Of a DNA stretch of 64,000 nucleotides, positions 44,796-60,029 are shown in pieces; the stretch's first letter is position 1; each line of letters starts with the position of its first letter. The translations under genes were made by a program, and so were the position numbers. The notes under the pieces were generated by a model. It was not told the DNA's origin and did not search any database. It saw only the letters and a program-made list of their open reading frames with translations. This DNA comes from Escherichia coli (GTDB lineage: Bacteria > Pseudomonadota > Gammaproteobacteria > Enterobacterales > Enterobacteriaceae), in NCBI RefSeq assembly GCF_003991155.1, contig NZ_CP031293.1. One strand, 5' to 3'.

Positions 44796-45143
44796 TTACG
44801 AATTACTGCGGCGCTGTTGCTTTTCCGCATGTACGCGTTTCACAATCTTATAAATCCATTGCAGCGTCAGATTATATTTCTTCGCTAATTCGGCGTAGTT
44901 GCGCCCATCGCACTCGCTATAGATTTGGTAGTCACGCTCCGATGCTCGTCCGGAGATCCCCTTAGGGAAATAAATGCTTTGTCCGCCCCAGTTACGCATC
45001 ATTCGGTCGGCAATGGCAAAGCCCACATTTTCTGCCGATGAACTGTCGAGATTGATGCTTTCAATCAGAACTTGCGATGCATGAAAAGCCAGGTCGTTAA
45101 TGATCTCCGGTGTCCGGGCCATCTCTTTTGATTTTCGTATCAT
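44796..45143 (-). CDS. Mor/C-like transcriptional activator (Mu middle/late activator family)
   Basis: 115 aa with C-terminal HTH (ELAKKYNLTLQWIYKIVKR), resembling the Mor/C family; transcribed divergently from the lysis/tail genes. Confidence 0.7.
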   Translation of the reverse strand: MIRKSKEMARTPEIINDLAFHASQVLIESINLDSSSAENVGFAIADRMMRNWGGQSIYFPKGISGRASERDYQIYSECDGRNYAELAKKYNLTLQWIYKIVKRVHAEKQQRRSNS

Positions 45144-45364
45144 TTTTCATCTCCATATATCTTGCATCCTGAATAAGACCCGATGCGTGTAAAACCACGG
45201 ATATACGCTAAGCAGTTGTCATTACTGCTACTCAATACATTCAACAAACAAATAAACAATTAACAAAAATATAAATTTTTAATATTAATGAACGCCATAA
45301 ATTCATGAAATAGATATATTGTTTGCGTTATGTTTCTTGTCAACAGGTGTATCATTTTACACGA

Positions 45365-45384
45365 TACTGTATACACATACAGTA
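45365..45384. promoter_or_regulatory. LexA-box-like palindrome in the island control region
   Basis: tactgtatacacatacagta, a perfect CTGT-N8-ACAG with TA-rich spacer; flanked by the inverted repeat ttttacac / gtgtaaaa. Confidence 0.6.
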
Positions 45385-45680
45385 TTATTTTTACTTGTAG
45401 TGTAAAAAGATCGTTTCCCTCACAGTCGCTGACTTTCTTAAACAAACTTTAAAAATCAAATAACTACTGACTATTCCTACGATTCACCATCATCTTTTCC
45501 CTGCATAATGACGCGCTTATTCGCGAGGTCACCTTTTGCTCTTTAATTGCTGAGTGGATTTATTAGCGGGCATGTTCATTTATAGAGAATCTATTTTTTA
45601 AACTTATTTATTAAAGCTTTTTTCATTCTTCACTGGCGGGTTCTGGCGACACTAAACGCTCACTTATCAGGAGATACCGT

Positions 45681-45968
45681 ATGAAAAAAGTCACTCTTCC
45701 CCGGCTTTCCGGTTGGCTGGTCGCTTCCGTCGCGCTGTTTGTCGTGATCGGCTGGACCTCTTCAGCACAAATCCCGGTCGTCATTTATAAACTAAGCCTG
45801 GTTTCGCTTTCCGCGGTGCTGGGATACTGGCTCGATCGCAGTTTGTTCCCCTGGGCACGGCCTGACTCTTTTTGCCCCTGGAAGGAACCGCGTTGCTGCG
45901 CGGCGGCAATGATTCGCCGGGCTATCATCGTTGCTGCCGTCTGCCTTTCCGTCGCGTTAGGGCTATAG
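45681..45968 (+). CDS. Small membrane protein, putative holin
   Basis: 95 aa with 2-3 predicted TM segments; AGGAGA RBS; first gene of the lysis cassette. Confidence 0.5.
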   Translation: MKKVTLPRLSGWLVASVALFVVIGWTSSAQIPVVIYKLSLVSLSAVLGYWLDRSLFPWARPDSFCPWKEPRCCAAAMIRRAIIVAAVCLSVALGL

Positions 45969-45970
45969 TG

Positions 45971-46576
45971 ATGTGGCTGAAATATATCGCGTCTATGATT
46001 ATTTTCGTTCTTTTCCCACTCAACGCCTCTGAACCGCCGAGAGCCTCTCTGGCATGGCGAAACGAACTAATTCGTACAGCTCGAGAAGTCTGGGGGCTGA
46101 ATGCCCCAGTGGCCGACTTTGCCGGGCAATTACACCAGGAGTCCGCCTGGCAGCCAATGGTACGTTCCCCCGTTGGCGCACAAGGTATGGCGCAATTTAT
46201 GCCTGCTACAGCGACATGGATAAGCCAGTTGTATCCACAATTGCGTGAAAACAAACCGTATAACCCAACCTGGGCGATTCGCGCGCTGGTGCAATATGAC
46301 CAGCATTTGTGGAAAAACATCTCTGCGAAAAATGATTGTCAGCGTATGGCGTTTACCCTAAGCGCCTATAACGGCGGTCAGGGGTGGGTTAACCGGGATA
46401 AAAAACTGGCTGCATCCAAAGGGTTAGATGCCACTAGCTGGTTTGGTCATGTTGAGCAAGTCAACGCCGGGCGCAGCGCCACGAACTGGCGAGAAAATCG
46501 TCGCTATCCAAAGATGATCCTCTATCAACATGCCGCCCGCTATTTACTCTGGGGACAGGCAAGCTGTCTTCATTAA
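45971..46576 (+). CDS. Lytic transglycosylase-type endolysin with N-terminal signal/SAR segment
   Basis: ATG at 45971; hydrophobic N-terminus MWLKYIASMIIFVLFPLNA; SLT-domain catalytic region (LHQESAWQP, AYNGG). Confidence 0.75.
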   Translation: MWLKYIASMIIFVLFPLNASEPPRASLAWRNELIRTAREVWGLNAPVADFAGQLHQESAWQPMVRSPVGAQGMAQFMPATATWISQLYPQLRENKPYNPTWAIRALVQYDQHLWKNISAKNDCQRMAFTLSAYNGGQGWVNRDKKLAASKGLDATSWFGHVEQVNAGRSATNWRENRRYPKMILYQHAARYLLWGQASCLH

Positions 46577-46588
46577 TCAGAGGGGCCG

Positions 46589-46903
46589 ATGAAACTCAGT
46601 ATCGATTTTTGGGAAGTGATCTCCCTTATGCTTTCCTTCGTTGGATTAATGTTTGCTGCCGGAAAACTGCTGTTAGCACAAATTGAAAAACGACTTAATG
46701 AGCGTTTTGAATCTCTGGAAAACGCGCGCCGGGAATCAGAAACAAGTTGGTCGAAACTGGAAAGAGAATTTCTCGAATTTCGTGCCGAGCTTCCGCTGCA
46801 TTATGTCCGCAGAGAAGATTATCTTCGTGGGCAAGCAGTATTAGAAGCGAAGCTGGATGCCTTATATAGCAAAATCGAGCTGTTACAACGTGGCAGTTAT
46901 TGA
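46589..46903 (+). CDS. Spanin-like protein (N-terminal TM plus coiled coil)
   Basis: 104 aa; TM helix then charged coiled-coil region; follows the endolysin. Confidence 0.5.
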   Translation: MKLSIDFWEVISLMLSFVGLMFAAGKLLLAQIEKRLNERFESLENARRESETSWSKLEREFLEFRAELPLHYVRREDYLRGQAVLEAKLDALYSKIELLQRGSY

Positions 46904-46904
46904 A

Positions 46905-46940
46905 AAATCCCCACCCTTATGTAAGGGTGGGGATTTTTTT
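46905..46940 (+). terminator. Strong rho-independent terminator after the lysis cassette
   Basis: aaatccccaccctta / taagggtggggattt 15-bp stem followed by a T-run. Confidence 0.85.
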
Positions 46941-47047
46941 AACCATTCAATTTTTTCTCTAAATCACATTAAAAGATTCTTCACCTTCGCTGCTTCAGAA
47001 TACATTTCAACGATAACGAAGTGAGCGGTAATTAAGGTACAGCCTAT

Positions 47048-47503
47048 ATGGAAATTTTATCTGTAATGAATTCTGTTGTGACCAGATTACGTGAACACAA
47101 CTCCGAAATGGATATATTTATTTCATCTAAGGATGCCCAGAAATATATTCCACAGACACAACGAGTTGCAGTGATTATTAATTATAGCGGTTCTGTCTTT
47201 GCTACGCCCGAAAGCAGTAATGCCATCGTGCAACAGCAAATACTCCGCTTAACCGCCACCGTTATTGTTGGCAAAAATTGTGATGCATTAAACGCACTTG
47301 ATCACATACGCAGCGCATTGGGTGGCCTTCAGCTTCCTGATTGCGATCGTCTTCTTTGGCTTGAAAAAGAAATTAATACGGGTGAGAGCGGCGGTTTCTG
47401 CCGCTACATCCTGGAAATGGCGACCAGCTCGCTATTTATCGCTGAACAGGAAAGCACGGATCTTCCCCTGCTTACGGAAGTTAACTACGAGGAAACTGAA
47501 TGA
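47048..47503 (+). CDS. Tail completion/terminator-like protein (Mu gp37-like)
   Basis: 151 aa immediately upstream of the sheath and tube genes; family call made by sequence recall. Confidence 0.5.
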   Translation: MEILSVMNSVVTRLREHNSEMDIFISSKDAQKYIPQTQRVAVIINYSGSVFATPESSNAIVQQQILRLTATVIVGKNCDALNALDHIRSALGGLQLPDCDRLLWLEKEINTGESGGFCRYILEMATSSLFIAEQESTDLPLLTEVNYEETE

Positions 47504-47697
47504 AATACATCTACAACGGCCCAGCAAGCGGCGTCACCCTTGCCGATGGACAAGAAATCTTATTGTGGCCGAACAGTGAAATTGATCTGCCAGAAGACAA
47601 CGAGTGGGTCATGACCATGATTGCCCGCAATCATCTGACTCCTGTCATCACTCAGGAAGAACAAAATAACGTAGAGGAAATTGTACATGGCAGCTAA
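47500..47697 (+). CDS. Small tail-module protein (Mu gp38-like)
   Basis: 65 aa; ATGA start-stop overlap with the upstream gene. Confidence 0.45.
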   Translation: MKYIYNGPASGVTLADGQEILLWPNSEIDLPEDNEWVMTMIARNHLTPVITQEEQNNVEEIVHGS

Positions 47698-49111
47698 TTA
47701 TCTGCACGGTGTAGAAACTATTGAAATTGAAACCGGCCCGCGTCCGGTTAAAGCGGTAAAATCCGCCGTCATCGCTTTAATCGGTACAGCCCCCTGCGGT
47801 CCGGTAAATAAACCAACATTATGCCTTTCTGAAAGCGATGCTGCGCAGTTTGGCTCGACTCAGGCTAACTTTACGATCCCACAGGCACTGAAGGCAATTT
47901 ATGACCACGGTGCCGGTACGGTGGTGGTGATTAACGTGCTGGATCCGGCAAAACATGGCTCCAACATCAGCAATGAGAGTATCACTTTTGATGCTAACAA
48001 CCAGGCGAAGCTCGCTCACCGCAATGTGCGTAACGTGGTACTAAAGCCCTCTTCATCAAATTCATCAACCTTTAACACCGCAGCATTTAGCGTAGATGAA
48101 CAAACAGGCATAATTACCCGTAAAGGAGCCGACATTCCTCCTGGTGCGAAAGTTTGTGCCTATTATTCCTGGTGCGACCCTACAAAGGTCACCGCAGCCG
48201 ATATTATCGGTACCGTAAATACCGCAGGCGACCGCACGGGGATGAAACTGCTACAGGACACCTATAACCTGTATGGTTTCTACGCCAAAATCCTGCTTGC
48301 TCCCGTGTTCTGTACGCAAAAATCAGTAACTACAGAGCTGATTGCACAAGCGGAAAAACTTGGTGCGATTACCTACATTGATGCCCCGATTGGGACGACA
48401 TTCCAGCAGGTATTGGCAGGACGCGGTTCGCAAGGGGCTATCAACTTCAACACCAGCTCTGATCGTGCGCGTTTATGTTACCCACACGTCAAAGTTTACG
48501 ATGGCATCACTAACCAGGAAGTTCTCGAACCGCTCTCTTCGCGCGCTGCCGGGCTACGTGCCAAAGTAGACCTCGAAAAAGGTTTCTGGTGGAGCAACTC
48601 AAACCAAGAAATTCAGGGTATTACCGGTATTGAACGTTCGCTTTCCGCAATGATTGATGATCCACAAAGCGAAGTGAATCAGCTAAACGAAAACGGCATT
48701 ACCACTATTTTCAATAGTTACGGCTCTGGTCTGCGCTTGTGGGGCAACCGCACTGCAGCGTGGCCTACCGTGACCCATATGCGTAACTTTGAAAACGTCC
48801 GCCGGACAGGCGATGTAATTAATGAGTCAATCCGTTATTTCAGTCAGCAGTATATTGATATGCCGATTAATCAGGCGCTGATTGATGCCCTGACCGAATC
48901 GGTAAATACCTGGGGCCGTAAGCTGATTGCCGACGGCGCACTGCTTGGCTTTGAATGCTGGTACGATCCGGCGCGAAATTCACCGACTGAACTCAGCGCT
49001 GGGCATTTATTGCTGAGCTATAAATTCACCCCACCGCCGCCGCTGGAACGTCTGACGTTTGAAACTGAAATTACTTCTGAATATTTAGTCTCTCTGGAGA
49101 GCAATAGCTAA
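47687..49111 (+). CDS. Contractile tail sheath protein
   Basis: About 474 aa from the ATG at 47687 (track start 47681 is TTG); GAGGAAA RBS; followed by the tube gene. Confidence 0.85.
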   Translation: MAANYLHGVETIEIETGPRPVKAVKSAVIALIGTAPCGPVNKPTLCLSESDAAQFGSTQANFTIPQALKAIYDHGAGTVVVINVLDPAKHGSNISNESITFDANNQAKLAHRNVRNVVLKPSSSNSSTFNTAAFSVDEQTGIITRKGADIPPGAKVCAYYSWCDPTKVTAADIIGTVNTAGDRTGMKLLQDTYNLYGFYAKILLAPVFCTQKSVTTELIAQAEKLGAITYIDAPIGTTFQQVLAGRGSQGAINFNTSSDRARLCYPHVKVYDGITNQEVLEPLSSRAAGLRAKVDLEKGFWWSNSNQEIQGITGIERSLSAMIDDPQSEVNQLNENGITTIFNSYGSGLRLWGNRTAAWPTVTHMRNFENVRRTGDVINESIRYFSQQYIDMPINQALIDALTESVNTWGRKLIADGALLGFECWYDPARNSPTELSAGHLLLSYKFTPPPPLERLTFETEITSEYLVSLESNS

Positions 49112-49635
49112 TGGCTGGAAAAATTCAAATTAACCGTATTACCAACGCCAATATTTATCTCGATGGTAATAACCTTTTAGGTCGTGCAACCGAAATTAAA
49201 TTGCCGGATGTCAGTTTAATTATGCAGGAGCATAAAGCACTGGGCATGGTGGGTAAAATCGAACTCCCGGCGGGTTTCGATAAACTGGAGGGCGAAATTA
49301 AATGGAACTCCTTCTATCAGGACGTAATGCGTAAAACGGCAAACCCGTGGCAGGCGGTTGCATTACAGTGCCGCTCCAGTATTGATTGCTATAACTCCCA
49401 GGGGAAAGCGAATCAATTAGCGCTAGTGACACATTTAACCGTGATGTTTAAAAAGAATCCACTGGGCACATTTAAACAGAATGAAAACCCGGAATTCAGC
49501 AGCGCCTTTGGTTGCACTTATATTAAACAAGTAGTTGATGGTGAAACGCTGCTTGAACTTGATTATATGGCCAATATTTTCCGGGTTAATGGTGTGGATC
49601 AATTAAGTACCTATCGCAATAACATCGGTGGCTAA
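49111..49635 (+). CDS. Tail tube protein (P2 FII-like)
   Basis: 174 aa; ATG overlaps the sheath stop; resembles P2 FII-type tube proteins. Confidence 0.8.
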   Translation: MAGKIQINRITNANIYLDGNNLLGRATEIKLPDVSLIMQEHKALGMVGKIELPAGFDKLEGEIKWNSFYQDVMRKTANPWQAVALQCRSSIDCYNSQGKANQLALVTHLTVMFKKNPLGTFKQNENPEFSSAFGCTYIKQVVDGETLLELDYMANIFRVNGVDQLSTYRNNIGG

Positions 49636-49639
49636 GTTA

Positions 49640-49660
49640 TTCGGGGCTACGGCCCCGAAC
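49640..49660 (+). other. Intra-operon hairpin after the tube gene (possible attenuator)
   Basis: ttcggggc / gccccgaa stem with no following T-run. Confidence 0.4.
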
Positions 49661-49685
49661 TTTGCAAAATAAATAAGGACACAAA

Positions 49686-50003
49686 ATGAAAGAACATTAT
49701 ATCTTACAGTTCCCGTTTACTTCAGCGGCGGGAGACGTAATTAACACTCTGCAATTACGTCGCCTGAAAGTAAAAGATATGCGCAACGCGCGCCGGATCA
49801 GCGAAAAACCTGAAGAGTGGGATGAACCGCTAATGGCGGCAATGACCGGACTGGTGCCAGAAGATTTAGCTGAAATGGATTTGCTGGATTACCAGGCATT
49901 GCAGAAACGATTTCAATCCATGCTTAGCGTGGCTACAGAATCCGCCACTGTTATGGCAAGCGATGGCGTTACTGGCGAGATGGTTTCGCTTTCCACCCAG
50001 TGA
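49686..50003 (+). CDS. Tail assembly chaperone (gpE/gp41-like)
   Basis: 105-aa acidic protein directly upstream of the tape measure gene. Confidence 0.65.
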   Translation: MKEHYILQFPFTSAAGDVINTLQLRRLKVKDMRNARRISEKPEEWDEPLMAAMTGLVPEDLAEMDLLDYQALQKRFQSMLSVATESATVMASDGVTGEMVSLSTQ

Positions 50004-50192
50004 GATAGACGCCCTTACCGTCGATGACTTTAGCAACTGGCTGGATGAAGCCAGCGCCCAAATAAAAATCGAATATGACTCGCAGACCTGATGTCTGCGA
50101 GTTTCCCAAGCCCGTCAGGTTTATTTCTTCCCTGCCCCTTTTTTTAGAAAAATAACCAGCGGGCCATTATCAATATTTAAAGAGAAACAATT

Positions 50193-52568
50193 TTGGCCAA
50201 CGATATTATTACCCAGCTTCAGGCGCGTAATGAGACGTTGACGCAGGCAATAGCCCGTTACGGCTCACTCAACGCCAGAACATTGTTAACTCTCTCTACT
50301 CAGCAGGCGACAGTTATCAAACTAACGCAGCAGCTTGCCGATTCCGCTCTCCGCCTGGAGGAAAATAGCCGCAGCCGCGCTAATCTGATGGAGAAAACCC
50401 AAACATTTGCCGGGCAATTTAGCAAAGTATTCAATGTTGAAGCCCCCGACTGGAAGTTGCCGTATGAGTTTCAGGACAACATGGTCAATATGGCGACCAA
50501 AGGTGGGATGAATGCTACAACCCGCGAGACGCTCAGCCTTAATCTGCGCGACTGGAGCATGGATTTTAACCAGCAGCAGACCACCTTACAGAACGCAGCC
50601 CAAACGCTGATCGAAGGCAATTTGTCGTCGATACAGGATCTCAACCGTTATATGCCGGAGATCGCCAAAGCTGCCACCGCCACGCGCGAAAGTGCTGAAA
50701 CATGGGCGAATGCCGCGCTCGCAACCCATGATCGACTGAATATTGCCCCGGAAAATTTCCACGCCGCGCAAAACATGATGTACGGCATTAGCAAAAGCGG
50801 TGGGCCTGCCATTGCTGAACAAACGCAGTGGATAGAGAAATTTGCAGGTAAAACCGGCGCTCAGGGTCTGGAAGGTATGGCTGAACTGACCGCCACCATG
50901 CAGATCGCCATGAAAAACGGGGCCAGCGCCAGTGCGGCGGCGGAGAATTTCGACCACTTTCTGCAAACCACCTTTTCGAAAAAAACCGATTACTGGTTCG
51001 TCAGCCAGGGCGTTGATCTGCAAGGCTCTCTGCTTGAGCATCAGCAAAACGGTATGGGTGTTAGCGAAGCCATGACTCATATCGTGCAAATGCAGCTTGA
51101 GAAGATGAATCCGGCGATCCTCGACACCTTCAAACGCACCATGCAGATCGAAGATTTATCTGCCCGCAGCAATGCGCTGCAATCGATGGTGACGCAGTTT
51201 AATCTGGGGGAAATGTTCGGCGATGCGCAAACAGTGGAATTCCTGGCCCCTATGCTGGCGAATATGGAGGAATATCGCCAGTTAAAAGCCTCTGCCATGC
51301 AAGCCACCAGCAAGAATCTGATTGATGCCGACTTTTCTGCGCAAATGGCCTCGCCCATTGAACAGACTAAAGCGTTACAGCTGGCGTTAAATGATTTATG
51401 GCTCAGCATTGGCTTGCAATTAATGCCGCTGATTGGCGAGCTGGCACAAAGCCTTACGCCGGTTATTCGTCAGTTCAGCGCCTGGCTACGTGAGCACCCG
51501 ACACTGGTGCAAAACATCGCGAAAATCGTCGGGGCGATTTGGCTGTTTAACGGTGCGCTGAATGTTTTAAAGCTGGGCGCGAACCTCATCACCTCGCCGT
51601 TTATTCGTCTGGTCGATATCTTCCTGAAAGTCAAGGCAAGTCTGGCGCTCACAGGCGGGGCAAGTAAGATGCTATCAGCGGTTAAGTCATTGGGTGGCGG
51701 CGCAAAATGGCTAACGCAACTGCTTGGTCGTGGCCTGATTGGAACATTGAAACTGGTTGGTCGGACCGTTCTCTCACTAGGCCGGGTGCTACTGATGAAT
51801 CCCATTGGTCTGGTCATCACTGCGATTGCGGGCGCTGCTTATCTGATTTATCGCAACTGGGAGCCTATCTCCAGGTTCTTTTCGACCATCTGGCAACGTA
51901 TCACCACGGCCTTTGACGGCGGCATTGCAGGAATTTGTCGGTTGATTCTCGACTGGTCACCGCTGGAGTTGTTCTATAGCGCCTTTTCCAGTGTGATGAA
52001 TTGGTTTGGTGTCGAGATGCCTGCAAGTTTTAGCGAGTTCGGCAGCAATCTTCTGGGCAGTCTGGTTGACGGCATAATGAATGCCTTCCCCGCTCTGAAA
52101 GGCATTATTGATCAGGTAAAAAACGCCATCCCAGACTGGCTAAAAACCACGATGGGTATTAGTACAGAAGGATCGGCTACAGCTATTACAAGCACGACTA
52201 ATACCGCATCCGTCTCCCCCGCGACCGTTGTTCCAGGCGTTGCCGGTGCGATTTTAACGCCGCCGGTGGGCAAACAACTCGCGCCATCCGGCAAAACGGC
52301 TACGCCGTCATCGGCGCCAGCGGCAAAAAATACAGCCGCCAAACCCGTATCTGCCTCTTTACCTGGTAAATCCGTAACCAAAGCGGCGACGCTACCTTCC
52401 CGTTCCTCAGGAAAAGTTCAGGTGAATTTTTCGCCACAAATTACCGTGCAGGGTAACGGACAAAACACCACTAAAGAGATTCAGAACGTGTTGACGATGA
52501 GTAAACGCGAACTGGAAAGAATGATTAACGATGTAATGGCGCAGCAGCAGCGCCGGGGGTATGCCTAA
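50193..52568 (+). CDS. Tail tape measure protein
   Basis: 791 aa, largely alpha-helical, hydrophobic central segments, Ala/Pro/Ser/Thr-rich C-terminal region; track start is TTG. Confidence 0.85.
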   Translation: MANDIITQLQARNETLTQAIARYGSLNARTLLTLSTQQATVIKLTQQLADSALRLEENSRSRANLMEKTQTFAGQFSKVFNVEAPDWKLPYEFQDNMVNMATKGGMNATTRETLSLNLRDWSMDFNQQQTTLQNAAQTLIEGNLSSIQDLNRYMPEIAKAATATRESAETWANAALATHDRLNIAPENFHAAQNMMYGISKSGGPAIAEQTQWIEKFAGKTGAQGLEGMAELTATMQIAMKNGASASAAAENFDHFLQTTFSKKTDYWFVSQGVDLQGSLLEHQQNGMGVSEAMTHIVQMQLEKMNPAILDTFKRTMQIEDLSARSNALQSMVTQFNLGEMFGDAQTVEFLAPMLANMEEYRQLKASAMQATSKNLIDADFSAQMASPIEQTKALQLALNDLWLSIGLQLMPLIGELAQSLTPVIRQFSAWLREHPTLVQNIAKIVGAIWLFNGALNVLKLGANLITSPFIRLVDIFLKVKASLALTGGASKMLSAVKSLGGGAKWLTQLLGRGLIGTLKLVGRTVLSLGRVLLMNPIGLVITAIAGAAYLIYRNWEPISRFFSTIWQRITTAFDGGIAGICRLILDWSPLELFYSAFSSVMNWFGVEMPASFSEFGSNLLGSLVDGIMNAFPALKGIIDQVKNAIPDWLKTTMGISTEGSATAITSTTNTASVSPATVVPGVAGAILTPPVGKQLAPSGKTATPSSAPAAKNTAAKPVSASLPGKSVTKAATLPSRSSGKVQVNFSPQITVQGNGQNTTKEIQNVLTMSKRELERMINDVMAQQQRRGYA

Positions 52569-53521
52569 TGTATGCCGTTTTAGGAGAGATTGAATTTAAG
52601 GTTGTCACATTCTGGGACGGCTTTAAAAGCACAATGGGCGTGGATTACGCCACACATGCCCGTATAGAAGGCAAACCCGGCGTGCAGTTTATTGGCGATA
52701 AGCTGGATATGCTGGCGCTGGAATTTTCCCTGCACAGCCAGTTTTGCCAGCCCACAACAGAGCTGAACCGACTGCGTGAAGCCATGCTTGCTCACAAGGC
52801 GATGGCACTGGTATTTGGCAATGGCGATTATCGCGGCTGGTTTGTGATTACGGAGCTAACCGCCACCCACCAGCACACCGATCCCTGGGGCAATGTGATT
52901 GCCCAAAACGGAACGATGTCGCTCCAGGAGTACACCGGCGATCCTAAAAATCCACTTTTACCTCCGGCGATTACCACCCAGGAGCCCAACATCGAGGAAA
53001 AGGCGAGCGATTTTCCCGACAAGGTGGAGTCCTGGTTTGATCAGATATTAAACGCCATTGAAGAAGGTATGCGTAAGGCCAAAGAGATGCTGGATGAACT
53101 GACACAATCCATTGAAGATATTAAAAAAACGGTGGCAAAAGTGAAAGCAATGATTAAAGAGGCCAAAGCGTTAAAAGAAAAGTGTGAAAAGATAATTACG
53201 TCATTGAAAAAGACAATCGACGCCATCGAAACCCTGTTTAAACAGCCAATGGATCTGCAAACGCTGGCAGGCCTACCAAAAGCGTTGTCGGCGCAGATTA
53301 AAGCTTTACTGGGTAACATGCCAGGTATCCGGGACTGCGCCAATGACGCCAGTACGCTGGTTGACCATGCTCAGGCGCTTTTCGACGACATTACCAGCGA
53401 CATCGCCGAAGCGACGTTCGATAAAGCCACGTCGTTGGTTGAGCAGGCACGTACAACGGTACAACAAACCACTCCCGCAGTGAGCCAGCTTGCTGCCGTA
53501 ACCATTACCAGGAGCTGGTAA
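52568..53521 (+). CDS. Tail protein, gpU / DNA-circulation N-terminal-domain-like, with coiled-coil C-terminal extension
   Basis: N-terminal 140 aa resemble P2 gpU / Mu gpN N-domain; C-terminal half is Lys/Glu-rich coiled coil. Confidence 0.6.
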   Translation: MYAVLGEIEFKVVTFWDGFKSTMGVDYATHARIEGKPGVQFIGDKLDMLALEFSLHSQFCQPTTELNRLREAMLAHKAMALVFGNGDYRGWFVITELTATHQHTDPWGNVIAQNGTMSLQEYTGDPKNPLLPPAITTQEPNIEEKASDFPDKVESWFDQILNAIEEGMRKAKEMLDELTQSIEDIKKTVAKVKAMIKEAKALKEKCEKIITSLKKTIDAIETLFKQPMDLQTLAGLPKALSAQIKALLGNMPGIRDCANDASTLVDHAQALFDDITSDIAEATFDKATSLVEQARTTVQQTTPAVSQLAAVTITRSW

Positions 53522-53730
53522 TGCGATACCTTGAACATATCACCACCGATGGCGAACGCTGGGATAACCTGGCATGGCATTACTACGGTGATGCGCTGGC
53601 TTATGAACGCATAATCGCCGCCAATCCACATGTAGCCATTTACCCGGTACTGCCTTCCGGTATTCAGCTCATTATTCCGGTCATTTCCGTTAATAAAACC
53701 TTATCGGAGATCCCACCATGGCTGAGATGA
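53521..53730 (+). CDS. Tail protein X-like (LysM-like)
   Basis: 69 aa with the DxWDxLAxxYYGD...ANP pattern typical of P2 gpX. Confidence 0.65.
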   Translation: MRYLEHITTDGERWDNLAWHYYGDALAYERIIAANPHVAIYPVLPSGIQLIIPVISVNKTLSEIPPWLR

Positions 53731-54758
53731 GCGTAACTGGTGGCGTCTTTGCCACACTCACGCCCATTTTTACCCTCTGGTATGGGCATAAAGATATCAC
53801 TTATGACATCACACCCTATGTCACCAGCATCAGTTACCACGACAGCATCAAAAACGAGTCGGATACCATCGCAATTACACTGGATGACACAGATGGACGC
53901 TGGATAAAAGAGTGGTATCCCGGCAAAGGCGATACGCTGGCGCTGCATATAGGTTATCAGGGGGAAAAGCTGCTCGATTGTGGCCAGTATATTATTGATA
54001 AAATTGATATTTCAGCGCCACCTTCCACGGTAAATATTGATGGCATCGCCACTTCCGTCAATCAGGCGCTGCGCACCCGTAACAGCCAGGGCTTTGAAGA
54101 AACGACGCTTTCGGCGATCGCCAGCCGTATTGCCCAAACGCACGGTCTGAAACTGGTGGGCAAAATCGAGTCGCTCACCATCGACCGGGTAACGCAGTAT
54201 GGTGAAACCGATGTCGGATTTCTCAAACGTCTGGCCAGTGAATATGGTTATGCCGTAAAAGTGACGACAAAAGAGCTGATTTTTTCACATTTACCCACGC
54301 TGCGCTGCCTGACGCCTGTGAAAAAGATCGATCGCAAAGAGGTTTCTCATTTTACCTTCAAAGACACCATTAACCGGATCTACAAGAACGCCACCGTACA
54401 GCATCAAAATAGTAAGAAAAAAGAACTGGTTATCTACACTCACAACAGCCAGCAAAAACCATCTGTCCGTGGAGTCGGCACTAGTGCCGACACGCTAAAA
54501 CTGAACAGTCGGGCGACGGACGTTGGCGCAGCACAGGCAAAGGCTAACGCTGCACTCGACAGCCACAACGAATATCAGCAAACCGGAACGCTCACAATGA
54601 TGGGCTGCCCGGAACTGACGGCGGGCAATAAAATTGAACTGACCGATTTTGGCGTGATTTCCGGTCAGTGGCTGATTGATAAATCTACTCACAGTTTTGT
54701 GCGCAGCGGCTATACCACTGAAATCGACGTGTCACGCGGGCCAGCGACCAGCCAGTAA
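53718..54758 (+). CDS. Tail/baseplate hub protein (P2 gpD / Mu gpP-like)
   Basis: 346 aa following gpU-like and gpX-like genes. Confidence 0.65.
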   Translation: MAEMSVTGGVFATLTPIFTLWYGHKDITYDITPYVTSISYHDSIKNESDTIAITLDDTDGRWIKEWYPGKGDTLALHIGYQGEKLLDCGQYIIDKIDISAPPSTVNIDGIATSVNQALRTRNSQGFEETTLSAIASRIAQTHGLKLVGKIESLTIDRVTQYGETDVGFLKRLASEYGYAVKVTTKELIFSHLPTLRCLTPVKKIDRKEVSHFTFKDTINRIYKNATVQHQNSKKKELVIYTHNSQQKPSVRGVGTSADTLKLNSRATDVGAAQAKANAALDSHNEYQQTGTLTMMGCPELTAGNKIELTDFGVISGQWLIDKSTHSFVRSGYTTEIDVSRGPATSQ

Positions 54759-54767
54759 GGAGGAAAT

Positions 54768-55469
54768 ATGAAAGGAGTAACCCGTCAAACGGGGATTATC
54801 AGCGATATTGACGAAACCAGTGTTCGGGTACGGGTCACTCTACCAGAGTGTGACAATCTGAAGAGCAACTGGCTTGCGGTACTTCAACGCAATTCCCAGG
54901 ACAATAAAGACTACTGGCTACCGGATATGGGCGAGCAAGTGGAAGTTCTGCTGGACGATAACGGTGAAGATGGCGTGGTGCTGGGTGCCGTTTATTCTAC
55001 GGTTGACACCGCGCCTGTAGCCTCGCGCGACAAACGTTACGTCCAGTTTTCTGATGGCGCAGCGTTTGAATATGACCGCAGCACGCACCAGCTGACGATT
55101 AACGGCGGTATCGAGAAAATCGTGATTGAGGTTATCGACAGCACCCGCCTGACATCGCCCAACGTTGAGATTAAAGCCCAACACGTCACCGTGACTTCCG
55201 ATACCGTCGATGTTAAAGCGACCGATGTCAGCATCGACGCCACTAAGGTCGAGGTTAAAGCAGCAGCAGTGACGGTAGATGCGCCCATGAGCACCTTTAC
55301 TGGCAACGTCACGGTAATGAAAAAACTCACCTGGCTTGGCGGGATGGCAGGAAGTGGAGGCATCGGTAACGCAGCCACGATAACCGGCAATGTCAACGTG
55401 ATCGGCAACGTTCAGGCCAGCGGCGCATTGCAGGACAGCGGTGGCAACTCCAACCACCATTCACACTGA
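54768..55469 (+). CDS. Baseplate central spike protein (gpV-like)
   Basis: 233 aa; beta-rich repeats (VEIKAQHVTVTSDTVDVKATDVSIDATKVEVKAAAVTVDA); C-terminal HHSH. Confidence 0.75.
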   Translation: MKGVTRQTGIISDIDETSVRVRVTLPECDNLKSNWLAVLQRNSQDNKDYWLPDMGEQVEVLLDDNGEDGVVLGAVYSTVDTAPVASRDKRYVQFSDGAAFEYDRSTHQLTINGGIEKIVIEVIDSTRLTSPNVEIKAQHVTVTSDTVDVKATDVSIDATKVEVKAAAVTVDAPMSTFTGNVTVMKKLTWLGGMAGSGGIGNAATITGNVNVIGNVQASGALQDSGGNSNHHSH

Positions 55470-55567
55470 CTTTTAACCCGCCTGATGGCGGGTTTTCTCT
55501 TTTTAATCAATCAGTTTTCTAAATCGCTTTAATATCTCCACAGCCCGTTCAGGGCGAAAATACCCTC

Positions 55568-55927
55568 ATGAACACAAAAACACGCCCCTCAACGCTGCAC
55601 TGGCAACCGGCCTTGCAGCGGCCTGAAGAATACGTCTGCGGGCTGGATGATATTCACCAGGCAATACACATCATTCTGCGTACACCGCGCGGCAGTGATC
55701 CCCACAGACCGCTGTTTGGCAGCAACTTGTGGCACTACATCGATTACCCCATCGAGCGGGCTATCCCGCATGTGGTACGGGAGTCGGTGGAAGCCATCCG
55801 CCAGTGGGAACCGCGCTGTCGGTTGCTGAAGGTGACACCAGTAATCGACGGCGAACATCTGACGTTACGTGTGCAATGGCGCGCCGCTGACGGCGTTATC
55901 AACTCAACGGAGGTGTTATGGCGATAG
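55568..55927 (+). CDS. Baseplate wedge protein (GPW/gp25 lysozyme-like family)
   Basis: 119 aa with family-typical GxDxxxAIHIIL...GSxPxRPxFGS pattern. Confidence 0.75.
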   Translation: MNTKTRPSTLHWQPALQRPEEYVCGLDDIHQAIHIILRTPRGSDPHRPLFGSNLWHYIDYPIERAIPHVVRESVEAIRQWEPRCRLLKVTPVIDGEHLTLRVQWRAADGVINSTEVLWR

Positions 55928-57033
55928 CCGAACCCAATTTTATTGACCGCGATCCTGCGCAAATTACCAGTGAGATGATTGCGCAATACGAAGATGCCAG
56001 TGGTAAAAAACTCTATCCGGCACAGGCTGAGCGGTTGCTCATCGACCTGTTTGCCTATCGTGAAAACCTTGTACGCATCGCCATTCAGGAAGCGGCGAAA
56101 CAAAACCTGGTCGCGTATTCCCGCGCGCCAATGCTGGATTATTTAGGGGAGTTGGTGGGAGTTCACCGTTTGCCTGCGCAGCCTGCAAAAACGACGTTGC
56201 AGTTTTCGGTCGTTAGTGCGTATCCCGGCAATATCCTGATTCCCCAGGGGACGCGGGCCAGTGCCTCTGATAGCGTGATGTTCGCCACCGATGAAGATGT
56301 TCTGCTTCCGGCCAGGAGTTTGCATATCGCCGTTCCTGCCACCAGCCTCGCAGCAGGTGAACAGGGTAACGGCTGGCAGCCTGCACAAATTAGCGCACTG
56401 GTCGACAGGATTGGTCATTATGACATCAACGTAACCAACCTGACTGCGTCAACGGGCGGCTGCGGTGAAGAGAGCGATGACGCATTGCGCCAGCGTATCC
56501 AACTGGCACCAGAAAGCTTTAGTAATGCGGGCAGCTATGGTGCCTACCGCTTTCATACGCTTTCTGTTAGCCAGTCGATTATTGACGTTGCAGTACTGGG
56601 GCCGGACGAGGGATTGCCAGAAGGCTGCGTGGAGATCTACCCGCTAACCCTGAATGGTCTACCCGGCACGGAGTTGCTGGCGCAGATTGAACAAGAAGTC
56701 AGCAAGGAGAAAAAACGACCGCTGACCGACAAAGTGAGTGCGAAATGCGCTCTTCGAGTGCCGTATGAGATCCGTGCGCAGCTAATGCTGTTTACCACCG
56801 CCGATCAGGAGACAACGCTGGCTGCGGCGCGTAAAGCGATTAGCCTCTGGACGCAACAGCGGCAGAAACATCTGGGGCAGGACATTGTGCCAAACCAGAT
56901 AATCAAAGTGTTACAGGTCGATGGCGTCTATGACGTTGCGCTGAATATGCCTACAAAACGTATTTTGCAGGCGCATGAATGGGCGGAATGCACTGCAATA
57001 GACGTCACGATTGCCGGAGTCAGCGATGGATAA
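55918..57033 (+). CDS. Baseplate J-like protein
   Basis: 371 aa; start overlaps the gpW-like stop. Confidence 0.75.
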   Translation: MAIAEPNFIDRDPAQITSEMIAQYEDASGKKLYPAQAERLLIDLFAYRENLVRIAIQEAAKQNLVAYSRAPMLDYLGELVGVHRLPAQPAKTTLQFSVVSAYPGNILIPQGTRASASDSVMFATDEDVLLPARSLHIAVPATSLAAGEQGNGWQPAQISALVDRIGHYDINVTNLTASTGGCGEESDDALRQRIQLAPESFSNAGSYGAYRFHTLSVSQSIIDVAVLGPDEGLPEGCVEIYPLTLNGLPGTELLAQIEQEVSKEKKRPLTDKVSAKCALRVPYEIRAQLMLFTTADQETTLAAARKAISLWTQQRQKHLGQDIVPNQIIKVLQVDGVYDVALNMPTKRILQAHEWAECTAIDVTIAGVSDG

Positions 57034-57742
57034 ATTGCTGCCACCGCCGCCGCTTGCCAGCGATGAGCGTTTTTCGATTCTGGCAAACATCGCCGCCGAG
57101 CGTTTTGCCCAACTCGATCTGACGGCGTTGATGGTTTATCTGGTCGACCTGGTTGATGCTTCGGCATTACCAGCCCTTGCAGAACAATTTCACGTTCAGG
57201 GGCTGGAAGGTTGGTTATTTACCACCGATGAGCGGGAGAAACGCGAGTTAATTAAACAAGCCATTGAACTGCATAAATATAAAGGAACAATTTGGGCGGT
57301 ACGGCGAGTGCTGGAAATACTTTCCTTACCCGGAACTATTTCAGAATGGTTTGAATATGGGGGAAGGGCTTATTTTTTTAAGGTAAATATTACACTAGAG
57401 GAAAAAGGATTAAATGAAGATGAATTCAATGCACTTATCACATTAATTCATGAATATAAAAATGTTCGTTCAAAGCTGGAAAGCATTGTTATTTGGCTTA
57501 TTAATCGAAGCCCAATACCAGTTATTGGCAGCGCCATGCAAGGAGGGGAAGTCATTACAGTATTGCCTCCTGTTGCAGAAAGCCTCAGCCAGTCATCAGG
57601 AATATTTTTAGCGACGGGTTATTGTGTGGAGGAATATATCCAACTACTACCTTATCAACCCGATCGCCTTACACAATCCCAACCGATGAAGGTCGGCACA
57701 GGATACTGGAGCACCGAAATTATGTCTGTATATCCGGAGTAA
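57026..57742 (+). CDS. Tail protein I-like (baseplate wedge)
   Basis: ATG at 57026 overlapping the J stop (track start 57011 is TTG); about 238 aa. Confidence 0.65.
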
Positions 57743-57744
57743 TA

Positions 57745-59325
57745 ATGGCAAGTGAATTTTTTACAATATTAACTGCTGCAGGCAAAGCCAAAATTGCCTC
57801 AGCACTGGCCGAGCAAAAACAGATCCGTCTGCAAACTATGGTAGTTGGCGACGGTAATGGTAAATATATCGAACCGACAGAAAGTCAGACCAAAGTAGTC
57901 CATGAGGTCTGGCGTGGTCAGCTCAATACATTAAAAATTGCGCCAGATAATCCGGCCTGGGTTATCGCAGAAGCGATTATTCCCGAACAAGTCGGAGGCT
58001 GGTATGTACGCGAAGTTGGGTTACTGGATACCGACGGCACGCTGGTCGCTATTGGTAAATTCCCGGAAACCTATAAGCCACGATTACCTGCGGGGGCCAG
58101 TAAGCAAATCGTTATACGCGCGGTCATGGAAGTCACCAATGCAGACGCGGTGACGCTTTTGATCGACCCTTCAGTCGTTGTGGCAACCAGGGAATATGTC
58201 GATGACGCGTTGAAAACACATCAGCAATCACGAAATCATCCTGATGCGACGCTGACACAAAAAGGTTTTACGCAGCTCAGTAATGCAACTAATAGCGATG
58301 ATGAGACTAAAGCAGCCACGCCAAAAGCGGTAAAAACGGCATATGACCTGGCAAATAGCAAAGCCGCAACCAGTCATACTCATGCCTGGAATCAGATTAC
58401 TGGTATCCCTGACGGTACACTGACGCAGAAAGGAGTCGTTAAACTTAACAACACAACAAATAGCACCAGTACAACGGAAGCTGCAACGCCAAGTGCGGTT
58501 AAAGCAGCGATGGACAAGGCTATTGCTGCGGCGCCGTCCAGCCATACCCATGCCTGGGGGCAAATAACAGGTATCCCCGACGGTACGCTGACACAAAAAG
58601 GGGTCGTGAAACTTAATAATGCGACCAACAGCACCAGTACGACGGAAGCTGCGACGCCGAACGCGGTTAAGGCAGCGATGGATAAGGCTATTGCTGCGGA
58701 AAGCTGTCCTGTTGGGATGCCTATTCCCTGGCCATCTGATTCTGTACCTTCAGGCTACGCTCTGATGACAGGTCAGACATTTAATAAAACCTCCTATCCC
58801 AAACTGGCAATTGCATATCCATCTGGTGTTATTCCTGATATGCGCGGATGGATAATTAAAGGAAAACCATCCAGTGGGCGCGCTATATTATCTACTGAAC
58901 TGGATGGAGTTAAATCACATAACCATACGGGCAGTATTTCGAGTACTGATTTAGGGACGAAAACCACACCCCTCACAGACTTGGGGACTAAAACTGCATC
59001 ATCATTTAACCATGGAAATAAAACAACAAGTTCATCTGGCTCAGGCTCGGCAACTGCAACAGTAAGAACAGGGACATCTTCACCAGAGGGCCAAGGCGAC
59101 TGGACATCATATGGCCCTGGTACCGGATCATCTTTGGCAATTAATGTTCCATCACACGTTCATAGTGTTACAATTGGTTCCCATTCGCACACTGTTGCGC
59201 TCGGCACCCATTCGCATTCAATTGCACTTGGTTCCCATAACCACTCCCTAACCATTAATAATACCGGCAGCACCGAAAACACCGTCAAAAATATCGCATT
59301 CAACTATATTGTGAGGCTAGCATGA
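57745..59325 (+). CDS. Tail fiber protein with tandem fiber repeats and His-rich C-terminal tip
   Basis: ATG at 57745 in frame with the track ORF; three tandem 56-aa repeats; C-terminal HxH motifs (SHSHT, THSHS, SHNHS) and [11 protein letters not shown] end. Confidence 0.85.
58246..58700 (+). repeat. Tandem 168-bp direct repeats inside the tail fiber gene
   Basis: Repeat units begin at about 58246, 58414 and 58582; units 2 and 3 are near-identical at the DNA level. Confidence 0.8.
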
Positions 59326-60029
59326 ATACTTTTACCTTTTCTGATGAAGCTCAAATACTAACTGTATATAATTTTTCACAAGACTCCCAAGAATATATCG
59401 GTGAGTCTGATGCATACATTGCACCTAATACAGGCTTGCCAAATTATTGCACATTAATTTCACCTCCCGAAAAGGCTCCTGGTTTTACTCCAGTGTGGGA
59501 GAATGAAACATGGAGACTTATTGAAGATCATCGAGGCCAAACTGTTTATAACAAAGTTGATGGTAGCCAGCTTATTATTCAAGAATTGGGCCAATTACCT
59601 GAAAATGTAACAGTCATTTCCCCGACAGGTTCTTTTGAACGTTGGGATGGTGAAAAATGGCAACCATCTATAACCGATGCTAAAGAGGCGAAATACTCTG
59701 CAATCAAAAATCAACGCGATGCCATCACAACCGATTACATCATCATCAACAACCATCACTTCCACAGTGATACAAATAGCCGTATCCAACAGCTTTCACT
59801 CACAAAAATGGGAGCGGAGAAAAAAATTCCGCCAGGGTTAATGTGGAAAACTAAAAATAATGGTCTGATTGAGTTAACCAACGAAATCGCTGCCCAGTTT
59901 GAATCGGTCACCATGGATCACGATATGCGCTTGTTCGCAAACGCCCAGCGTCATATCGCGGCGGTGGAAGCACTGGACGATATTCAGGCGGTGCTCGACT
60001 ACGATTATTCAACAGGCTGGCAACCATGA
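59322..60029 (+). CDS. Tail fiber assembly protein (chaperone)
   Basis: 235 aa; ATGA overlap with the fiber stop. Confidence 0.7.

Follow-up and report, generated by a model that had tools for sequence, protein, structure and literature searches.

A conserved TTT_C tetramer as the probable site of a +1 ribosomal frameshift in the gene for the tail assembly chaperone in a putative tail-only element of Escherichia coli

Frameshifts in the genes of phage tail assembly chaperones are well known, with -1, -2 and +1 versions all on record, and in phage lambda the short protein G and its frameshift-extended form GT are made at a ratio of about 30:1 (PMC5009743). The closest described systems in contractile tails are those of P2 gpE and Mu gp41, both of which belong to the Pfam family Phage_TAC_7 (PF10109). 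No stimulatory RNA structure has been reported for the P2 E/E+E' pair (PMC3091744), and the -2 shift of Mu proceeds with an efficiency of about 2.2% (PMC3498833). Beyond phages, influenza PA-X relies on the established +1 slip tetramer UUU_C: its site, UCC_UUU_CGU, works at ~1% without an RNA stimulator, and tRNA-Phe binds UUC better than UUU (PMC3498833). Among protein family models, Phage_P2_GpE (PF06528) represents the E' part of P2 E+E', and NCBIfam contains no family matching either a fusion or E'. Making a chaperone in two forms is an ordinary phage strategy; the slip site that we propose here is an unusual one, annotated in none of the records inspected.

The window analysed is a stretch of 64,000 nucleotides from the E. 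coli contig NZ_CP031293.1 (assembly GCF_003991155.1). Between ~47 and 60 kb it holds a contractile-tail gene set that starts with a Gp37-family protein and continues in the order sheath, tube, chaperone, tape measure, U-, X-, D-, V-, W-, J- and I-like genes and fibre, of which the following surround the feature of interest:

47681-49111: sheath gene.
49111-49635, plus strand: tail tube gene of the P2 FII type (PF04985, E=4e-56; annotated in RefSeq), upstream neighbour of the chaperone gene.
49686-50003, plus strand: short form of the tail assembly chaperone (gpE-like, 105 aa), with an ATG start and a TGA stop at 50001-50003.
50193-52568, plus strand: tape measure gene (PF10145, phrog_28) with a TTG start identical to that in RefSeq, downstream neighbour of the chaperone gene.

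The chaperone ORF matched Phage_TAC_7 (E=4e-18, 65.7 bits against a cut-off of 25) and phrog_166 (E=9e-33), with residues 1-76 forming the conserved domain and residues 77-105 an unconstrained tail. Its 105-aa product, named 'phage tail assembly protein' in RefSeq, is the sole protein annotated from the gene, and its placement between the tube and tape measure genes of a contractile tail is that of the P2-type E / E+E' pair. Both gene boundaries proposed in the initial annotation of this stretch, the end of the chaperone ORF at 50003 and the TTG start of the tape measure gene, were confirmed, and around the latter the sequence TTGGCCAACGA is conserved among enterobacterial relatives. The chaperone region is 100% identical in E. 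coli strains including IAI39 and CE10, and the locus was found in 194 of 5426 complete E. coli genomes.

The tail genes form part of a ~15.7-kb cluster (44796-60481), flanked by lysC and yjbD, that also encodes a Mor-type activator, a holin, a lytic transglycosylase and a membrane protein alongside a complete contractile-tail and fibre set, and that carries no head, portal, terminase, transposase or integrase genes. It looks like a tail-only element, either tailocin-like or a prophage remnant, from a BcepMu-like phage, and numerous enterobacterial relatives lie on IMG/VR contigs of 14-18 kb, which fits the same tail-only element. At the same locus in E. coli AR_0013, a ClbS gene and an ISEc53 insertion follow the Mor gene (22562-24319, equivalent to ~45.2 kb in the window), and at 36005-37943 (57.0-59.3 kb in the window) gene I is frameshifted and the fibre genes are truncated, whereas gene I (57011-57742) and a 567-aa fibre ORF (57622-59325) are intact in the window copy, indicating decay of the tail-only element in some strains. 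The gpU-like protein of the cluster (52568-53521) is 317 aa long, about twice the length of P2 gpU (480-bp gene, about 159 aa); PF06995 spans only its residues 6-123. Beyond these, ~190 residues make up a long extension, helical or coiled-coil, that gave numerous weak matches of coiled-coil and tape-measure-like type.

A second reading frame, +1 relative to the chaperone ORF, overlaps the last 131 nt of that ORF and extends 29 sense codons (50002-50088) past the frame-0 stop:

49870-50091, plus strand: full open +1 frame, bounded by stops at 49867 and 50089.
49915-50091, plus strand: E'-like segment, read in the +1 frame after the proposed shift; 58 codons (NPCLAW...YDSQT) ending in TGA at 50089-50091.

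The initial annotation had noticed that this frame continues through the stop, and both its openness and the peptide given for it (...FRFPPSEIDALTVDDFSNWLDEASAQIKIEYDSQT) were correct, the count of 27 codons beyond the stop being two short and the overlap with the chaperone ORF going unmentioned. The E'-like peptide matched phrog_8286 (E=2e-19) and, over profile positions 1-35 of 37, PF06528 (E=7e-4; 19.5 bits, under the gathering score of 23). BLASTP of the +1 peptide against P2 E' paired MALLARWFRFPPSEIDALTVDDFSNWLDEA with MADVAVIFHWPPSELYPMSLTELITWREKA (E=7e-4), and an HMM built from +1-type peptides alone gave 34 bits for the E' of the P2-like Pasteurella phage AFS-2018a, which lies in the -1 frame, and only 12.9 bits for that of P2 itself. 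These matches make it likely that the C-terminal +1 segment is homologous, remotely, to P2 E'. The E' core (PSEIDALTVDDFSNWLDEA, 49995-50048) also resembles the C-terminal helix motif of the TAC_7 domain (PEDLAEMDLLDYQALQKRF, 49857-49913), the counterpart of which in Mu gp41 is LSVDDFQRL, and this likeness may represent an internal repeat of a putative binding motif.

We compared the gene across a first set of 86 loci (the window; phages PhiKM, BcepMu, YO107_2 (Ralstonia), KP12 and Bise (Pseudomonas); and 80 IMG/VR loci) and a second set of 18 GC-rich relatives of BcepMu and Bise, including phiE255, which together cover enterobacterial, Burkholderia, Ralstonia and Pseudomonas relatives from several bacterial families. 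The conservation of the second frame in homologues, which the initial annotation had named as a check on its proposal, was found throughout: relative to the chaperone gene, the E'-like peptide is in frame +1 in 86 of 86 and 18 of 18 loci, counts that overstate the number of independent observations, the 104 loci being related by descent. P2 and the Pasteurella phage encode E' in frame -1. Values of pN/pS for the +1 frame were 0.46 in the overlap and 0.33 beyond the frame-0 stop, where the other two frames of the same nucleotides gave 1.2-1.5. Because the peptide is kept in the same relative frame in all of these loci and pN/pS is low, the open +1 frame is not a chance occurrence.

Third-position variability and amino-acid conservation both track frame 0 as far as 49913 (Phe76); from about 49929 they track frame +1, the short stretch in between being a variable linker. 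Frame-0 pN/pS rises from 0.43 up to 49913 to 1.28 after it, against the value of 0.46 for frame +1 in the overlap, and by this measure purifying selection moves from frame 0 to frame +1 at the tetramer TTT_C:

49905-49914, plus strand: proposed frameshift signal AAA_CGA_TTT_C, with the slip tetramer TTT_C at 49911-49914 made up of the Phe76 codon and the next base.

The distribution of stop codons in relatives bounds the position of the shift from both sides. The +1 frame of YO107_2 is open from no more than 8 nt 5' of the Phe76 codon, and frame 0 meets a stop 24 nt past the first base of that codon in three loci (L111-L113) and 30 nt past it in Bise; a positionally conserved shift must therefore fall within about 32 nt, from 8 nt upstream to 24 nt downstream of the Phe76 first base (49903-49935). 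The sole invariant feature inside this interval is TTT then C. Across the loci, the frame-0 tail past Phe76 ranges from 8 to 36 codons, counting from the Phe codon itself.

Phe76 is invariant, and in 104 of the 104 loci it is encoded by TTT with C as the next base, the entropy at 49911-49914 being 0. This tetramer occurs in the contexts CGA_TTT_CAR, TCC/GCC/TCT_TTT_CGY, GCR_TTT_CAR and TTT_TTT_CGG, and is retained even at 61-68% GC, in loci that favour TTC for Phe and have TTT as the minority codon. A codon-usage test covered 72 unique sequences and 30 degenerate codons conserved in the gene; of these codons, just the consecutive AAA (63/63), CGA (68/68) and TTT (72/72) were held to a single form, indicating that synonymous positions at the site are conserved beyond the needs of the protein. 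Since the loci share descent, the case rests on the saturation of neighbouring synonymous sites, on the GC-rich lineages that keep TTT and on the bounded interval. The 11-mer AAACGATTTCA, comprising the signal and the next base, occurs once in the window, and neither -1 heptamers (X_XXY_YYZ) nor Mu-like G-runs are conserved in the overlap.

CTT_A at 49923, considered as a Ty1-like +1 site, was rejected because it is not conserved, being CTC in one relative (L024) and other codons in PhiKM. Natural in-frame fusions were of no use as markers of the junction: two of them (P0001 and P0002) join at a C-run at ~49941-49949 that is absent in the window, and four others (P0003-P0005 and P0027) are deletions. 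The former are 134-aa singleton database proteins in which the frames are fused as ...TESS followed by LLWQAM..., and several other rare fused proteins lack an internal stretch, among them a 105-aa Salmonella 'phage tail assembly protein' in which ...EMDLL runs directly into ARWFRF.... These rare in-line fusions may be mutants of decaying elements or errors of sequencing or assembly.

On this comparative evidence we consider it likely that the chaperone gene yields a second, longer protein through a +1 ribosomal shift at TTT_C (49911-49914). Two proteins would then arise from one start codon. The majority of ribosomes would remain in frame 0 until they met the stop at 50001-50003, yielding the 105-aa chaperone, which consists of the TAC_7 domain and a dispensable tail, while a minority would shift +1 at TTT_C: the P-site Phe-tRNA (anticodon GAA), held on UUU by a G:U wobble, would slip one base forward to a Watson-Crick match on UUC and go on to read AAU CCA UGC... 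as far as the TGA at 50089-50091. The predicted product is:

join(49686..49913, 49915..50091), plus strand: predicted long form, 134 aa (76 + 58), in which ...LQKRF is followed by NPCLAWLQNPPLLWQAMALLARWFRFPPSEIDALTVDDFSNWLDEASAQIKIEYDSQT.

The initial annotation had envisaged an extension of the 105-aa protein by 27 residues. A short form and a +1 fusion both appear very probable, with the difference that the fusion would be no simple C-terminal addition: the last 29 residues of the short form would be replaced by 58. After a slip at UUU_C, tryptic digestion would release FNPCLAWLQNPPLLWQAMALLAR, following ...LQK/R, as the peptide that spans the junction.

The predicted fusion has the two-domain architecture of P2 E+E', with which it aligns colinearly and end to end: PF10109 covers residues 6-78 (72.8 bits) and PF06528 residues 93-126, compared with 7-85 and 104-139 in the P2 protein. 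Its AlphaFold2 model reached a mean pLDDT of 89.4 and a pTM of 0.76, and the best viral fold matches of the model were frameshift-type tail chaperones, including the Burkholderia phage Mica tape measure chaperone and Mu FS-gp41. Among solved structures, no relative was found either by sequence or by Foldseek against the PDB.

RNAalifold on 17 diverse sequences found essentially no conserved RNA structure around or after the site (-0.76 kcal/mol), and the fold of the window's own RNA at the site had a z-score of -1.47; Rfam gave no match in 49500-50400, and no SD-like stimulator is conserved upstream. The frame-0 A-site codons are CAA, CAG, CGC, CGT, CGG or CTG, none of them clearly rare, so a 'hungry codon' stimulus is not evident and the efficiency may be low; it is probably a few percent at most. 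Such a low efficiency would fit the role of long forms, as seen in the G:GT ratio of lambda and the efficiency of the Mu shift. The codon CGA 5' of the site, invariant in the enterobacterial clade and replaced by others in GC-rich relatives, may be a stimulator there. Along with the slip itself and its efficiency, we infer a possible role for this CGA as an E- or P-site helper and a function of the two forms in assembly: by analogy with lambda G/GT and P2 E/E+E', the tape measure protein would be coated by both, and the additional domain of the long form, the rarer of the two, would recruit tube protein, allowing the tail to polymerise to its correct length.

The same product could also be reached at the same site by a different step, in which CGA occupies the P site, read by tRNA-Arg ICG through an I:A wobble, and the incoming Phe-tRNA binds UUC, in place of UUU, out of frame, with no slip of a peptidyl-tRNA. 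P-site I:A wobble pairs disturb A-site decoding in yeast, and codon choice in the enterobacterial clade is consistent with such a step: CGA accounts for 68 of 68 Arg codons at this position and ~6% of the Arg codons in local ORFs, while another conserved Arg codon of the gene is only ever CGC or CGT. The GC-rich relatives, however, keep TTT_C behind TCC, GCC, TCT, GCA, GCG, AAA or TTT, and CGA is therefore not essential across the family. We regard this route as unlikely and favour re-pairing of the P-site tRNA-Phe from UUU to UUC.

Independent translation of the E'-like ORF from an internal ATG at 49963 (MALLARWF..., 42 aa), with no fusion made, is a much less probable source of the second domain. 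The ATG is present in the window, and E'-like ORFs are annotated as separate small genes in some database entries, e.g. phiE255 gp16 and BcepMu gp42. In most relatives, however, the Met is Gln or another residue; the +1 ORF has no positionally conserved start codon, an SD-like tetramer preceding any start in only 3 of 72 sequences; and conservation of the +1 frame begins 5' of 49963, with a Trp at 49930 and a Leu at 49951. In P2, moreover, E' is not known outside the E+E' fusion.

A +1 shift close to the frame-0 stop, where the initial annotation had placed a slippery site (49984-50002), would add about 29 residues to a near-full-length chaperone and give the trans-frame peptide ...MVSLPPSEIDALTVDDF.... 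CUU_U is a tetramer of the prfB type and does lie in frame 0 at 49989, but this sole candidate in the region (CTT_T, 49989-49992) is not conserved, its CTT codon showing a frame-0 residue identity of 0.43 and a first-base entropy of 1.33. Upstream of it, the +1-frame residues LWQAxALLARWFRF (49950-49992) rank with the best conserved in the whole gene (87-100% for L, A and LLARWF) in a region where frame 0 is free, with a pN/pS of 1.28, and in L111-L113, L085 and Bise frame 0 ends 24-33 nt past the Phe76 first base, far 5' of CTT_T. We consider a shift at this position extremely improbable.

A -2 shift of the Mu type would likewise land in the +1 frame, and Mu gp41, a member of the same Pfam family, is extended by such a shift at CGG_GGG_CGA, a site that also holds a CGA. 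Against a similar event here, the codon two bases back from UUU would be GAU, CCU or CAU; the bounded interval has no homopolymeric run for -2 re-pairing and no conserved G-run; and the Mu extension has no detectable similarity to the E' peptide, including by the E' HMM, which leaves this reading barely credible. The idea that no second product is made, the +1 frame being a relic or a chance ORF or the mRNA being altered by transcriptional slippage, agrees with the RefSeq annotation of a 105-aa protein only but can be all but dismissed given the low pN/pS past the stop, the conservation in 104 loci from several bacterial families and a run of three Ts too short for polymerase slippage.

The end of the +1 frame coincides with a structured element:

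50077-50103, plus strand: conserved 10-bp hairpin enclosing the +1-frame stop, GACTCGCAGAC-CTGAT-GTCTGCGAGTT (RNAalifold).

In the RNAalifold consensus of 10 relatives this hairpin includes one compensatory pair, and it was not called by a simple terminator scan. A longer-range CCCGG/CCGGG pairing lies at ~50113-50170, in the 100-nt untranslated gap 5' of the tape measure TTG. The hairpin may be no part of the frameshift device; together with the structure in the gap, it could act as an attenuator, as a processing site or in the control of tape measure translation.

Annotation of the long form is sparse. A joined CDS for chaperone and E' is annotated in none of the phage records inspected, and a literature search on frameshifting in BcepMu or Bcepmuvirus, on PF10109 and on +1 tail chaperone sites, with a coverage that ended short of Xu et al. 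2004 and Christie et al. 2002, returned no description of the site. The long form is absent from RefSeq at this locus, and is absent or mis-paired in the Bcepmuvirus records inspected. In NZ_CP032204.1 one locus tag, RS04430, is skipped between AM340_RS04425 and AM340_RS04435, exactly at the E'-like ORF, which suggests that a feature was once called there and later dropped.

More tentatively, and with a little less than an even chance of being right, we propose that BcepMu-like phages and the tail-only elements derived from them make their long chaperone by a conserved UUU_C +1 shift where P2-like phages use a -1 shift, the signal being AAA_CGA_UUU_C in enterobacteria and UCC_UUU_CGC in Burkholderia. 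If true, this would be a natural and widespread bacterial example of a PA-X-type signal, in which homologous two-domain proteins are reached via opposite shift directions and CGA is a possible new 5' stimulator. Any effort to rebuild such tails, for example as tailocins, would have to keep the overlapping frame and TTT_C, and recoding TTT as TTC, or CGA as CGT, during codon optimisation would destroy the long form unnoticed. For the study of recoding, the locus would offer a cheap and testable bacterial model of UUU_C +1 shifting and of the effect of a 5' CGA.

Among known systems, lambda G/GT provides the functional paradigm, with a chaperone and its frameshift-extended form made in a fixed ratio from genes 5' of the tape measure gene (PMC5009743); it differs from the present locus in having no sequence similarity, in shifting -1 on G_GGA_AAG and in belonging to a siphovirus tail. 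The slip site itself is closest to that of influenza PA-X and to similar UUU_CGN sites in amalgaviruses and fijiviruses, with which it shares UUU_C, the proposed re-pairing of tRNA-Phe onto UUC and the lack of an evident RNA stimulator. BcepMu and its close relatives carry UCC_UUU_CGC, identical to the PA-X site except for the last base; unlike PA-X, the site here has a bacterial host and, in enterobacteria, the context CGA_UUU_CAR. For BcepMu, a G/T-type frameshift was already suspected in the GenBank record (NC_005882, 1155-1916), where gp42 is labelled 'lambda G-like' and gp43 'T-like, by ribosomal slippage'. Our comparison instead pairs BcepMu gp41, the TAC_7 chaperone, with the gp42 frame as its E' (+1) extension via TTT_C. 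Nothing corresponding to the gp43 frame is present in the window, in relatives or in phiE255, where a reverse-strand gene lies in its place.

The element itself appears to come from a BcepMu-like lineage, that of Mu-like transposable phages, and shares with Mu gp41/FS-gp41 the N-terminal Pfam family, the +1 relative frame of the extension and a CGA adjoining the site, whereas Mu uses a -2 shift on the G-run of CGG_GGG_CGA and has an extension not detectably similar to the E' peptide found here. With P2 E/E+E' it shares the position of the gene between FII-type tube and tape measure genes and a predicted long form of two domains (PF10109 followed by a GpE/E' segment that is likely, if remotely, homologous), at sizes of 105 and 134 aa compared with 91 and 142 aa in P2, and the P2 slip site falls 3 residues downstream of Phe76 in the alignment, i.e. 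within about 3 residues of the homologous position. P2, however, shifts -1 on the heptamer T_TTT_TTG and has E' in the -1 frame, whereas here E' lies in the +1 frame, there is no heptamer and the site proposed is the tetramer TTT_C. Judged by its sequence, the locus would work like P2 E/E+E' but without the P2 recoding signal, and the direction of the programmed shift would vary among homologous genes, being -1 in P2, +1 here and -2 in Mu, with the logic of two products retained.
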